Below, piece by piece: positions 21,001-24,000 of a stretch of 27,162 bases of DNA. Every line of letters starts with the position of its first letter. Positions within the stretch are counted from its first letter, which is position 1. The DNA comes from a virus. Lineage: Duplodnaviria > Heunggongvirae > Uroviricota > Caudoviricetes. The DNA lies in the IMG/VR virus record IMGVR_UViG_2526164602_000031. One strand, written 5' to 3'. The position numbers are program-made.

Positions 21001-24000
21001 GTAAAGTTTGTGCAGCAATTTTGTCCGCAGCCATTTGTCTGGCCGTATCCGGTGTGCCTGCATGGGCGTCTGAGCATCAGTCCACGCTGAGCGCAGGATA
21101 TCTTCATGCCAGTACGGACGCTCCCGGCAGCGATGATCTGAACGGGATTAACGTGAAATACCGTTATGAGTTTACGGACACACTGGGGCTGATTACGTCC
21201 TTCAGTTATGCCAACGCCGAAGATGAGCAAAAAACGCATTACAGCGATACCCGCTGGCATGAGGATTACGTGCGTAACCGCTGGTTCAGCGTGATGGCAG
21301 GGCCGTCTGTGCGTGTGAATGAATGGTTCAGTGCGTATGCGATGGCGGGTGTGGCTTACAGCCGTGTGTCGACTTTTTCCGGGGATTATTTCCGCGTAAC
21401 TGACAACAAGAGGAAAACGCACGACGTGCTGACCGGAAGTGATGACGCTCGCTACAGCAACACATCTCTGGCGTGGGGGGCTGGCGTGCAGTTTAACCCG
21501 ACCGAATCAGTGGCCGTTGATGTCGCTTATGAAGGCTCCGGCAGCGGTGACTGGCGCACTGACGGTTTCATCGTGGGTGTCGGTTATAAATTTTGATTAG
21601 TAACACAGCGTTATGACAGCCCGCCGGTTCAGGCGGGCTTTTTTGTGGAGTGGGTATGGCAGCAGTACAAATATCAGGCGTGCTGAAAGATGGTGCGGGA
21701 AAACCAATACAGAACTGCACCATTCAACTGAAAGCCAGACGTAACAGCACCACGGTGGTGGTGAACACGGTGGCCTCTGAAAATCCGGATGAGGCAGGGC
21801 GTTACAGCATGGACGTCGAGTATGGTCAGTACAGCGTCACTCTGTTGGTGGAGGGATTCCCGCCATCACATGCCGGGACCATCTCCGTGTATGAAGATTC
21901 TCAACCGGGTACGCTGAATGATTTTCTCGGTGCCATGACGGAGGATGATGCCCGTCCGGAGGCACTGCGTCGTTTTGAACAGATGGTGGAAGAAGCAGCG
22001 CGTCACGCAGAGGAGGCGAAGAAGAATGCCGGAGAAGCAGAGACGTCCGCGAGGAATGCCGGCATATCAGCCAGTAAGGCGGAAGCGAGCGCCGCAAATG
22101 CTGATACTTCAGCAGAGGATGCATCGGAGTCAGCCCGGCAGGCGGCAGAAAGTGCAGCCTCTGCAAAGAAGTCAGAGGAAGCGTCCTCGTCCTCAGCCTC
22201 TGAGGCCGCTCAAAAAGCCAGTGAGTCATTACAAAGTGCAACAGATGCCGAGTTGTCAAAAAAGACGGCAGAAAGTGCAGCCGGTAATGCAGCCAGGGAT
22301 GCAACGACCGCAACAGAAAAAGCCCGGGAATCAGCAGAAAGCGCACAGTCAGCGGAACAAAGCAGAATAGCGGCGGAAGACGCCGTAAACAGAATTCCCA
22401 CCGTGGTGGGGCCTCCCGGACCAAAGGGGGAACCGGGTCCCGCGGGTCCTCAGGGGCCGAAGGGAGATAAAGGAGAGCGTGGAGACACCGGTCCGGCAGG
22501 GGCAACCGGTGAACGGGGACCGGGAGGAGATACAGGTCCGGCAGGTCCGCAGGGGCCGAAAGGCGACAGGGGAGAGCGGGGAGAGACCGGTCTGACAGGA
22601 AGTACAGGTCCACAGGGGCCAAAGGGAGATACCGGGGCAACAGGTCCGGCAGGACCGCAGGGACCGAAAGGGGAAACAGGTGCGGCTGGCCCGGTGGGGG
22701 CTACCGGACCTCAGGGGGCGAAGGGCGACCCGGGGGAGACACAAATACGGTTCCGTCTGGGGCCGATGAGAATTATTGAGACAAACAGCTATGGCTGGTT
22801 CCCGGGTACAGATGGTGCGCTCATCACCGGACTGACCTTTCTTGACCCCAAAGATGCCACACAGGTTCAGGGGATGTTTCAGCATTTGCAGGTCAGATTT
22901 GGTGACGGGCCATGGCAGGATGTTAAGGGACTGGATGAAGTGGGCAGTGATACAGGCAGAACTGGAGAATGACATGAATATTTTGAGAAAGCTTATGCAG
23001 AGTCTGTGCGGTTGCGGAAAGCATGATGACTGTGAAAACGGACGGTCACTTACAGCACAATTGCGACTGGGACCGGCAGACATTCTGGAGTCAGATGAGA
23101 ATGGCATTATTCCGGAGCAGGACAGGGTAATCACACAGGTGGTGATACTGGATGCAGATAAAAAGCAGATACAGTGTGTGGTAAGACCGCTGCAAATCCT
23201 GCGTGCTGACGGGACGTGGGAAAATATTGGCGGGATGAAGTAACCCGACAGCTTCACAAAACCGGAGTCCGGCTCCGGTTTTTGTTGTCATGTCCGGTGG
23301 ATGTTTGTTAGGAAAGCAAAGATGGCAAAACTGCTGGAGGTTTTGTGGTTGAGTATGCCAATATAATTAATAGATTAAAGAGTTAGTTGTGAAGAAAATA
23401 TGGATAAACAGGACGACGAATGCTTTCACCGATAAGGACAACTTTCCATAACTCAGTAAATATAGTGCAGAGTTCACCCTGTCAAACGGTTTCTTTTGCA
23501 GGAAAGGAATATGAGTTAAAGGTCATTGATGAAAAAACGCCTATTCTTTTTCAGTGGTTTGAACCTAATCCTGAACGATATAAGAAAGATGAGGTTCCAA
23601 TAGTTAATACTAAGCAGCATCCCTATTTAGATAATGTCACAAATGCGGCAAGGATAGAGAGTGATCGTATGATAGGTATTTTTGTTGATGGCGATTTTTC
23701 AGTCAACCAAAAGACTGCTTTTTCAAAATTGGAACGAGATTTTGAAAATGTAATGATAATCTATCGGGAAGATGTTGACTTCAGTATGTATGACAGAAAA
23801 CTATCAGATATTTATCATGATATTATATGTGAACAAAGGTTACGAACTGAAGACAAAAGAGATGAATACTTGTTGAATCTGTTAGAGAAAGAGCTGAGGG
23901 AAATTTCAAAGGCGCAGGATTCTTTGATTTCTATGTATGCAAAGAAAAGAAATCATGCATGGTTTGATTTCTTCAGAAATTTAGCCTTATTAAAAGCAGG

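Follow-up and report, generated by a model that had tools for sequence, protein, structure and literature searches.

EPclA (ECs2717, ECs0844, Z0982) is the closest described protein to the tail fibre considered here, and it is built from the modules PfN, PCoil, a single collagen domain and PfC, in this order (Ghosh et al. 2012, PLoS One 7:e37872; PMC3368898). In Table 2 of that study Z0982/ECs0844 is listed as EPclA with a collagen domain of 111 aa. The paralogue ECs2717, more than 90% identical, forms a dumbbell-shaped trimer with a coiled-coil PCoil and a true collagen triple helix and gives the CD signatures of both; its PCoil is α-helical and trimeric by experiment, its PfC has likewise been found to trimerise, and electron microscopy has made a hinge visible and gives 14-16 nm for a narrower PCoil region of 116 aa (PMC3368898). 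The protein family, its domains, the trimeric nature of its collagen and coiled coil and its length polymorphism have therefore been in print since 2012, and a further member has little discovery value in these respects.

The side tail fibre Stf of lambda (Ur-lambda; PDB 9e7m/9mgh) starts with a collar domain followed by a trimeric coiled coil, and its gene lies after J and lom. What sets it apart is that it goes on with long coiled coils, has a hinge and a distal domain that binds OmpC, and depends on Tfa. In Ur-lambda, 12 copies of the Stf collar domain encircle the junction between gpV and gpM (PMC12617516). EPclB (Sp5 ORF67/ECs1228, 933W L0121 and phi24B gp61) belongs to short-tailed Stx2 phages. 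It shares the PfN, PCoil, collagen and PfC modules and differs in its length (645 aa), in having a Pf2 repeat between two collagen domains and in being carried by a podovirus tail; an 89-aa stand-alone PfC ORF follows it (Sp5 ORF68). An anti-EPclB antibody labels the tail ends of Sp5, where the gene is essential (PMC5155283). Finally, in the EPclD-type fibres of Shigella and E. coli, PfN, PCoil and the start of the collagen domain are about 90% identical to the fibre described below and the C-terminus is a Peptidase_S74 intramolecular-chaperone domain (PF13884) instead of PfC, which shows that the distal end is exchangeable.

The DNA analysed here, called the window, is a stretch of 27,162 nt (IMG/VR record IMGVR_UViG_2526164602_000031). 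It is a prophage of the CP-933K/Sp3 type of E. coli O157:H7. The fibre locus lies downstream of J and lom, between lom and nleB2/nleC, and its DNA is 100% identical to the WP_000741874.1 loci of O157:H7 chromosomes. The fibre is EPclA, known from earlier descriptions and biochemical work, and is ordinary for E. coli O157:H7: the order of the modules, the 111-aa collagen domain of 37 triplets, the type of prophage and the position in it are the same, and nothing of substance differs, the protein having 438 aa in RefSeq and by counting against 437 in Ghosh et al. A side tail fibre of the EPclA type, encoded by an integrated lambda-like siphophage of E. coli O157:H7, very probably accounts for the gene as a whole. 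Compared with lambda Stf, the distal two thirds give way to a triple helix of collagen plus a PfC knob of 76 aa, and an intact tfa gene is missing. Deposited phage genomes that carry at least 80% of the protein number 141, and Stx-converting phages account for many of them; such fibres are borne by the phages through which genes for Shiga toxin and type III effectors pass from one E. coli strain to another. The features of the locus are collected in Table 1.

Table 1. Features of the fibre locus, in the coordinates of the 27,162-nt window.
Feature	Position	Strand	Basis or remark
Terminator-like hairpin and T-run after lom	21618..21645	+	Stops about 10 nt short of the start codon of the fibre gene
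GGAG Shine-Dalgarno	21647..21650	+	5 nt upstream of ATG 21656; read from the sequence
Side tail fibre gene, EPclA type	21656..22972	+	438 aa plus TGA stop
PfN / Stf collar domain, aa 1-99, putative tail-docking part	21656..21952	+	PF08400; likeness to PDB 9e7m; role from PMC12617516
Alternative-frame ORF, 267 aa	21837..22640	-	
Alternative-frame ORF, 141 aa	21945..22370	+	
PCoil, aa 100-246, 21 unbroken heptads A-x-x-S-A-x-x, predicted alanine-core trimeric coiled coil	21953..22393	+	Periodicity; paralogue
Alternative-frame ORF, 302 aa	22349..23257	-	
Junction IPTVV, aa 247-251, coiled coil/collagen boundary, probable hinge	22394..22408	+	Sequence; electron microscopy of paralogue
Collagen domain, aa 252-362, 37 Gly-X-Y triplets	22409..22741	+	Exact counting; PF01391
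C-terminal region, aa 363-438, PfC with RLGP motif; putative trimerisation/nucleation module, presumed distal knob	22742..22969	+	PF06820; paralogue
Stand-alone PfC gene ORF2, 89 aa, WP_001024022.1	22974..23243	+	PF06820, E 1e-35; phrog_576
Terminator-like hairpin closing the fibre/ORF2 pair	23258..23282	+	11-bp stem, 3-nt loop

The start codon in Table 1 is also the one called by RefSeq (WP_000741874.1); an alternative start, GTG at 21650, would give 440 aa, but it falls within the Shine-Dalgarno sequence. The counted length agrees with a preliminary description of this DNA, which had put the protein at about 439 aa and called it much shorter than lambda Stf; the latter has 774 aa. Along the protein, Pfam finds PF08400 phage_tail_N (E 4.3e-68, profile positions 2-133 of 134), PF01391 Collagen (E 1.7e-17) and PF06820 Phage_fiber_C (E 1.1e-33, profile positions 1-64 of 64), in this order. 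Among 28 alleles, the dN/dS of each of the four domains lies within 0.10-0.28, with about 0.1 in the collagen segment, and all domains of the fibre are under purifying selection. The fibre/ORF2 pair is flanked by two hairpins: the one after lom has an 8-bp stem with 7 G-C pairs followed by TTTTTT (-18.6 kcal/mol, z -2.2), and the one that closes the fibre/ORF2 pair reaches -21.3 kcal/mol (z -4.4), a value matched by none of 200 shuffles.

Residues 3-95 of the fibre are 90% identical, over 93 residues, to the Stf collar domain of Ur-lambda (PDB 9e7m, chain 9e7m_Ta), as expected from the lambda-like N-terminus proposed in the preliminary description. Homologues of lambda-type gpV (9168..9986) and gpM (15121..15450) are encoded within the window. 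This allele begins with MAAVQ; most paralogues begin with MAVK.

From nt 21953 onwards, three nucleotides after the start proposed before, residues 100-248 contain 28% Ala, 15% Ser and 15% Glu. The acidic Ala/Ser/Glu composition reported for this tract is thus real, but the low complexity is not random, the tract being a strict heptad coiled coil. Alanine occupies heptad position a in 16 of the 21 heptads and position e in 15, serine occupies position d in 12, and the spectral power at 3.5 residues stands about 20 SD above that of shuffled sequences (0 of 2000 shuffles reach it).

The collagen tract is a single Gly-X-Y run in which, by exact counting, Gly opens all 37 triplets with no break. 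The earlier figure of about 37 uninterrupted triplets was therefore correct and only its end, at 22740, was off by 1 nt. Position X is Pro in 17 of the 37 triplets, and position Y is mainly Thr, Lys, Ala, Gln or Arg. At the DNA level the domain is made of three degenerate units, each of 99 nt, together with a 23-nt motif that is present six times and encodes GPQGPKG(D/E).

It had also been proposed that such repeats expand and contract, changing the length of the fibre, and a comparison of repeat numbers bears this out: the collagen domain spans 4 to 38 triplets across 80 viral contigs and the best 120 clusters of homologues, and all the length changes among these homologues are in frame. Where breakpoints were inspected in the 80 viral loci, the large collagen deletions end in GPQGPKG copies. 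The coiled coil is variable in length too (-7, -27, -41 and -63 aa), and its 41-aa deletion fits 36-nt direct repeats 123 nt apart, of which 17 bases are identical by sequence reading. Short direct DNA repeats in both stalk segments permit in-frame deletions and duplications, by which fibre length can be adjusted in evolution; any particular length may carry a benefit for the phage. These multi-copy repeats also break short-read assemblies, and many viral contigs end within the collagen tract.

The following working model can be proposed for the fibre. Three chains would make up one fibre, and four trimeric fibres per tail would be expected by homology with lambda Stf. The N-terminal β-sheet domains, of 94 residues each, would act as collar subunits clamping the tail where the tube protein gpV meets the tip protein gpM, as the lambda Stf collars do, and the window encodes a homologue of each of these two proteins; this docking mode follows from the 2025 structure of Ur-lambda. 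Residues 100-246 would then wind into a coiled coil of three parallel helices around an alanine/serine core, about 22 nm long from the usual rise per residue. By analogy with the paralogue, the five-residue IPTVV junction is a probable hinge between coiled coil and collagen. Residues 252-362 would build a triple helix of the collagen type, about 32 nm long, which would owe its stability to Pro in position X and charged pairs rather than to hydroxyproline. PfC would trimerise, nucleate collagen folding from the C-terminal end and form a small distal knob presumably touching the host surface, where we infer a host receptor for the fibre. Such a domain build suggests that the fibre is a flexible tether, about 55-60 nm in length, and could speed the initial reversible adsorption, the committed receptor step being left to the central J fibre. 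Against this model, in a preprint on phi24B, a collagen shaft plus C-terminal domain, closely related to those described here, in a lambda-like phage have been argued not to recognise BamA, and the flexible collagen shaft to be unlikely to transmit a triggering signal. Trimer formation and the coiled-coil and collagen conformations are expected for this allele from paralogues more than 90% identical to it, and the location on the tail from its relative EPclB of phage Sp5; direct images of EPclA on a long-tailed virion were not found in the literature examined.

In other pathogens, collagen-like proteins attach to host cells or matrix, and Ghosh et al. (PMC3368898) raised, and left open, the possibility that these proteins serve the bacterium as surface or secreted adherence or virulence factors, like streptococcal Scl. 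The gene adjoins type III effector cargo (nleB2, nleC and nleH), a point in favour of this possibility. Nevertheless, this use is very improbable: inspection of the sequence revealed no N-terminal signal peptide and no cell-wall or membrane anchor, the N-terminus is a tail-collar domain, the gene occupies the canonical stf position after J and lom, the related EPclB is located on the Sp5 tail, and the reported expression is tied to phage induction (PMC3368898).

It could also be thought that the gene is a decayed or truncated, non-functional remnant of a longer lambda-type stf, without the distal half that binds the receptor. Its product is by far the shorter of the two and has no Pfam match to the PF03406 Phage_fiber_2 repeats of lambda Stf; instead of an intact gene for tail fibre assembly, RefSeq annotates only a tfa pseudogene fragment, about 3 kb downstream of the fibre, between nleC and nleH1. 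The prophage itself is defective, as its tape-measure gene is split by an IS629-like element, so this copy cannot build its own tail, a point against the working model as well, and sibling prophages would be needed, as helpers in complementation or partners in recombination, for its fibre to get into a virion. The fibre gene has nonetheless a sound distal end. The short C-terminal domain noticed before is a region of 76 aa with a complete PF06820 match, so that the protein is not a truncated piece of a longer fibre; the architecture of 437/438 aa is the commonest class among 58 complete loci, every domain is under purifying selection and the paralogue folds as a stable trimer. The remnant reading is contradicted by these four observations and is very improbable as well.

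The existence of long spurious ORFs on both strands, announced in the preliminary description, has been confirmed; in gene J of the same window an antisense ORF is longer still, so long spurious ORFs are not repeat-specific. Codon-order shuffling reproduces the lengths of the alternative ORFs in four of five frames, the fifth being marginal (p about 0.05); because of this, and of the dN/dS of 0.10-0.28 in the annotated frame, these ORFs are regarded as by-products. That the annotated frame is noncoding and the real gene one of the ORFs overlapping the tract (minus strand, 267 and 302 aa; plus strand, 141 aa) can practically be set aside, since their lengths arise from shuffled codons, their translations are by eye rich in Pro, Leu, Arg and Ser, and the annotated frame holds three strong Pfam domains and a collagen segment with a dN/dS of about 0.1.

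Once the gene is read as a side tail fibre of the EPclA type, the only loose thread of research value at this locus is what the stand-alone second PfC copy, ORF2, does. The ATG of ORF2 lies 1 nt after the fibre stop, with GGAG 7 nt upstream of it, and both elements are kept at the junction in the window and in the four other alleles compared. As in the EPclB loci, it directly follows the fibre gene; it is found at the same position in 40 of the 58 complete loci. Its domain part has a dN/dS of 0.09, as low as that of the collar and collagen domains, and ORF2 is under purifying selection. The selection, the conserved start signals and the constant position are the reasons to consider ORF2 as a working partner of the fibre tip, either as a PfC-docking trimeric cap or adaptor that alters binding, or as a chaperone for PfC trimerisation and, through it, collagen zipping in the C-to-N direction. 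This partnership is tentative and somewhat doubtful; against it, the homologue in phage Sp5 is non-essential, and the published suggestion is that of a recombination reservoir only. ORF2 and the heptad coiled coil had both been missed in the preliminary description, as had the published characterisation of EPclA.

AlphaFold2 monomer models of the last 79 residues of the fibre (pLDDT 63.2, pTM 0.44; shallow alignment of 18 rows) and of the 89 aa of ORF2 (pLDDT 63.0, pTM 0.49; shallow alignment of 25 rows) are of low confidence; they suggest a mostly β PfC, in agreement with CD data in the literature. When the ORF2 model was compared with the PDB by Foldseek, nothing came out below E 0.5, so no fold is assigned, and the best hit of a sequence search for a solved PfC relative had E 0.17.

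Two further relations between the fibre and ORF2 were considered and rejected. A programmed frameshift joining both products is not indicated, as no slippery site was found where the two genes meet (GGA GAA TGA C). The fusions present in databases (P0043, P0044 and locus L064) are frameshifts within PfC1 that run into the open +1 frame, and are most likely mutations or sequencing errors. Replacement of PfC1 by the ORF2 domain has a sole candidate, P0183, with collagen directly joined to the second PfC, which is not reliable because it is terminal on a contig of 3.3 kb. If the frameshift fusions are set aside, no fibre ending in an ORF2-type PfC was found in the best 120 clusters and 80 viral loci. 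Among the matches listed, the relatives of ORF2 are all of 131 aa or fewer.

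The fibre encoded in the window belongs to a type that has already been described. Ghosh et al. (2012; PMC3368898) gave this architecture the name EPclA, and their Table 2 lists Z0982 (CP-933K) and ECs0844 (Sp3) with a collagen domain of 111 aa, that is, 37 triplets. The likely start of the gene is the ATG at 21656, with GGAG 5 nt upstream, and the identical protein RefSeq WP_000741874.1 (438 aa) uses the same start. The preliminary description placed an Ala/Ser/Glu repeat and about 37 uninterrupted Gly-X-Y triplets at 21950-22740. Exact triplet counting, composition and Pfam prove its coordinates and content accurate: the triplets form a single run of 37 with zero interruptions (aa 252-362), Pro occupies the X position in 17/37, and the tract ahead of the collagen contains 28% Ala, 15% Ser and 15% Glu. 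The observation stands and its interpretation is supported; the feature is one that has already been characterised, in a family that is also known.

Coordinates of the fibre gene, its domains and other features of the window
Feature	Position	Strand	Evidence or content
Portal protein, two ORFs	4013-5137; 5232-5594	+	two separate CDS in matching RefSeq loci likewise
gpV, lambda-type	9168..9986		PF16461
Tape-measure gene, two parts	10713..12719; 13904..15121		
Insertion in tape-measure gene, 1313 bp	~12671-13978	+	comparison with strain 7784
Insertion ORF	12725..13051	+	HTH_Tnp_1
Insertion ORF	13048..13938	+	rve
gpM, lambda-type	15121..15450		PF05939
ORF antisense to gene J, 564 aa	18443-20137	-	
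Lom-family outer membrane protein gene, upstream neighbour of the fibre	20997..21596		Pfam
Fibre ORF	21650..22972	+	ORF list
Prophage tail fibre N-terminal domain	fibre N-terminus		PF08400, E 4e-68 (Pfam)
Gly-X-Y triplets	22409-22741		PF01391, collagen (Pfam)
Prophage tail fibre C-terminus	fibre C-terminal end		PF06820, E 1e-33, complete, positions 1-64/64 (Pfam)
ORF2, 89 aa	22974..23243	+	ATG 1 nt past fibre TGA; GGAG 7 nt upstream
nleB2, type III effector	23420..24400	+	PF24688
nleC, type III effector	24434..25453	+	PF13678
YkgJ-family fragment	~25564-25677		offset from locus L001
tfa pseudogene fragment	~25956-26111		offset from locus L001
nleH1-1, type III effector	ORF 26272..27162	+	OspG-type kinase domain

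Set out in rows of seven starting at residue 100, the Ala/Ser/Glu tract gives 21 consecutive heptads in an unbroken register, with Ala at position a in 16/21, Ser at d in 12/21 and Ala at e in 15/21. The spectral power at 3.5 residues lies about 20 SD above composition-matched shuffles, a value reached by 0/2000 of them. Because of this phasing and periodicity, the tract is predicted to be a strictly phased coiled coil with an alanine/serine core, its heptads being somewhat cleaner than the "loose" periodicity of the 2012 EPclA description. EPclA copies are >90% identical, and the characterised paralogue, ECs2717, is a trimer whose chains dissociate on denaturation (PMC3368898). By CD its Gly-X-Y tract shows the spectrum of collagen, with melting at 42 C, and its C-terminal domain (PfC) is a trimerisation module that permits rapid collagen refolding (PMC3368898). 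Rotary-shadowing EM of ECs2717 revealed a dumbbell of 55-62 nm whose stalk is hinged and is composed of collagen (~30 nm) and coiled coil (~16 nm) (PMC3368898).

It had been proposed that such tracts expand and contract by recombination, and natural variants support this. Collagen-domain lengths from 63 to 144 aa, differing in multiples of three residues, have been tabulated for EPclA proteins (PMC3368898); the run extends from 4 to 38 triplets in the best 120 homologue clusters, and runs of 38, 37, 36, 32, 27, 19, 9, 8 and 4 occur in viral contigs. The collagen-segment DNA is made up of three degenerate 99-nt units, the other two being 72% and 62% identical to the first, and a 23-nt motif that encodes GPQGPKG(D/E) occurs in it six times. 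When the tracts of the viral loci were written out triplet by triplet, the breakpoints of the large in-frame deletions fell inside GPQGPK motif copies: the 8-triplet form has the first GPQGPK fused straight to the last, the 32-triplet form lacks five triplets between two copies, and the 36- and 38-triplet forms have a one-triplet difference adjoining a copy. The coiled coil also varies in length: in some homologues the collagen begins 7, 27, 41 or 63 residues sooner. The 41-aa deletion corresponds to direct repeats of 36 nt at a spacing of 123 nt, with 17 identical bases in common as read by eye. These variants and their breakpoints at repeats support expansion and contraction through recombination or slippage. 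With 0.29 nm for each residue, one triplet amounts to ~0.9 nm of stalk. Numerous IMG/VR contigs terminate within the coiled-coil or collagen tract (L049, L052, L059, L063, L068-L072, L074, L078-L080), which fits assembly breaks in a multi-copy, internally repetitive gene.

A truncated fibre that has lost its receptor-binding domain is ruled out by the complete C-terminal domain. The gene is intact, since PF06820 is complete, 437/438 aa is the commonest length (37/58 complete genes from 80 viral contigs, 41/58 having 37 triplets) and purifying selection acts on every domain: among 28 distinct alleles, dN/dS is 0.11 in the N-terminal domain, 0.28 in the coiled coil, 0.10 in the collagen and 0.22 in PfC. 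Compared with lambda Stf, the distal two thirds of this fibre are a different module set. In the homologue list the same front end (N-terminal domain, coiled coil and collagen) is also found with other C-termini; in Shigella, for example, it carries the Peptidase_S74 intramolecular chaperone. The distal end is thus exchangeable rather than lost.

The long spurious ORFs noted over the repeats do exist in the ORF list, and their lengths are reproduced by codon-order shuffling within each domain; it is the annotated fibre frame that has the Pfam domains and a low dN/dS. Since gene J also has an antisense ORF, presumably a compositional by-product, that exceeds every alternative-frame ORF over the fibre repeats, such ORFs are a property of the GC-rich genes of the window and not of the repeats only.

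Directly behind the fibre lies ORF2, a stand-alone PfC gene composed of a short Cys-rich N-terminus and a second PF06820 domain (residues 26-89; E 1e-35; phrog_576). This domain shows ~35% identity to the PfC of the fibre itself, and both have the RLGP motif. ORF2 occupies the same position in 40/58 complete related loci, and terminator-like hairpins flank the pair on either side. The relatives among the matches listed, from E. coli, E. albertii and Citrobacter rodentium, are all small (<=131 aa). The strong purifying selection on the domain part (dN/dS 0.09) is more easily explained if the ORF2 protein were made and used. ORF68, its Sp5 homologue, is reported to be non-essential and has been proposed as a reservoir for tail-fibre variation (Mondal et al., PMC5155283). 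Among the homologues and viral loci inspected, no trustworthy natural fibre ending in the second PfC was found. The recurrent database fusions (P0043, P0044 and L064; 494-527 aa) were rejected as natural forms: they are frameshift mutants, shifted within the fibre PfC, whose frame passes via the open +1 frame into ORF2 and puts the second PfC at the end after an out-of-frame linker. They probably reflect mutation or sequencing error; in the window this +1 frame has ~44 open codons ahead of the ORF2 ATG. The sole direct join of collagen to the second PfC was discounted, being at a contig end. Monomer models made with AlphaFold2 for the two PfC domains had low confidence, a fold search with the ORF2 model gave no significant match, and a sequence search for a solved relative of PfC found none. 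Bench work would be worthwhile only on what the stand-alone PfC gene does and on the receptor for the PfC knob.

The only solved relative found for the fibre is the N-terminal domain of lambda Stf (PDB 9e7m/9mgh), to which residues 3-95 are 90% identical (84/93). In Ur-lambda, twelve copies of this domain, from four trimeric fibres, form a collar round the gpV/gpM ring junction, from which flexible linkers run into the trimeric coiled coil (PMC12617516). Because of this identity and the lambda-type gpV and gpM encoded in the window, it is a straightforward inference that the fibre would dock at the same junction. Antibody against EPclB of phage Sp5, a related two-collagen fibre, labels the tail ends, and its gene is essential (PMC5155283).

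The window is a CP-933K/Sp3-type prophage. Its first 25 kb match E. coli O157:H7 chromosomes at 99.6%, and many of these chromosomes carry the fibre gene with 100% identity. The fibre gene of the window is one of many near-identical copies in the genome (matching places per genome: median 2, up to 16). In annotated loci, terminase, portal, protease/capsid fusion, lambda-type tail genes, J, lom and the fibre are followed by a small "tail fiber C-terminal domain" gene, nleB2, nleC, nleH1-1, nleD and ybhB. The fibre genes are followed immediately by the effector cargo (23420-27162, +), where GC is down to 32-35%, against ~59% in the fibre gene. The only tfa in the RefSeq annotation is a pseudogene fragment ~3 kb downstream of the fibre; in identical loci it lies, with a YkgJ-family fragment, between nleC and nleH1-1, which suggests that the effector genes lie among what is left of an older lambda-type stf/tfa region. 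The tape-measure gene is split by an IS629/IS1203-like element with IS3-family transposase ORFs, so this prophage copy is tail-defective, unable to make its own tail. In strain 7784 the tape-measure gene is intact and an IS lies instead in the DUF1441 gene. Besides, the portal protein is divided into two ORFs, possibly another inactivating lesion of this prophage.
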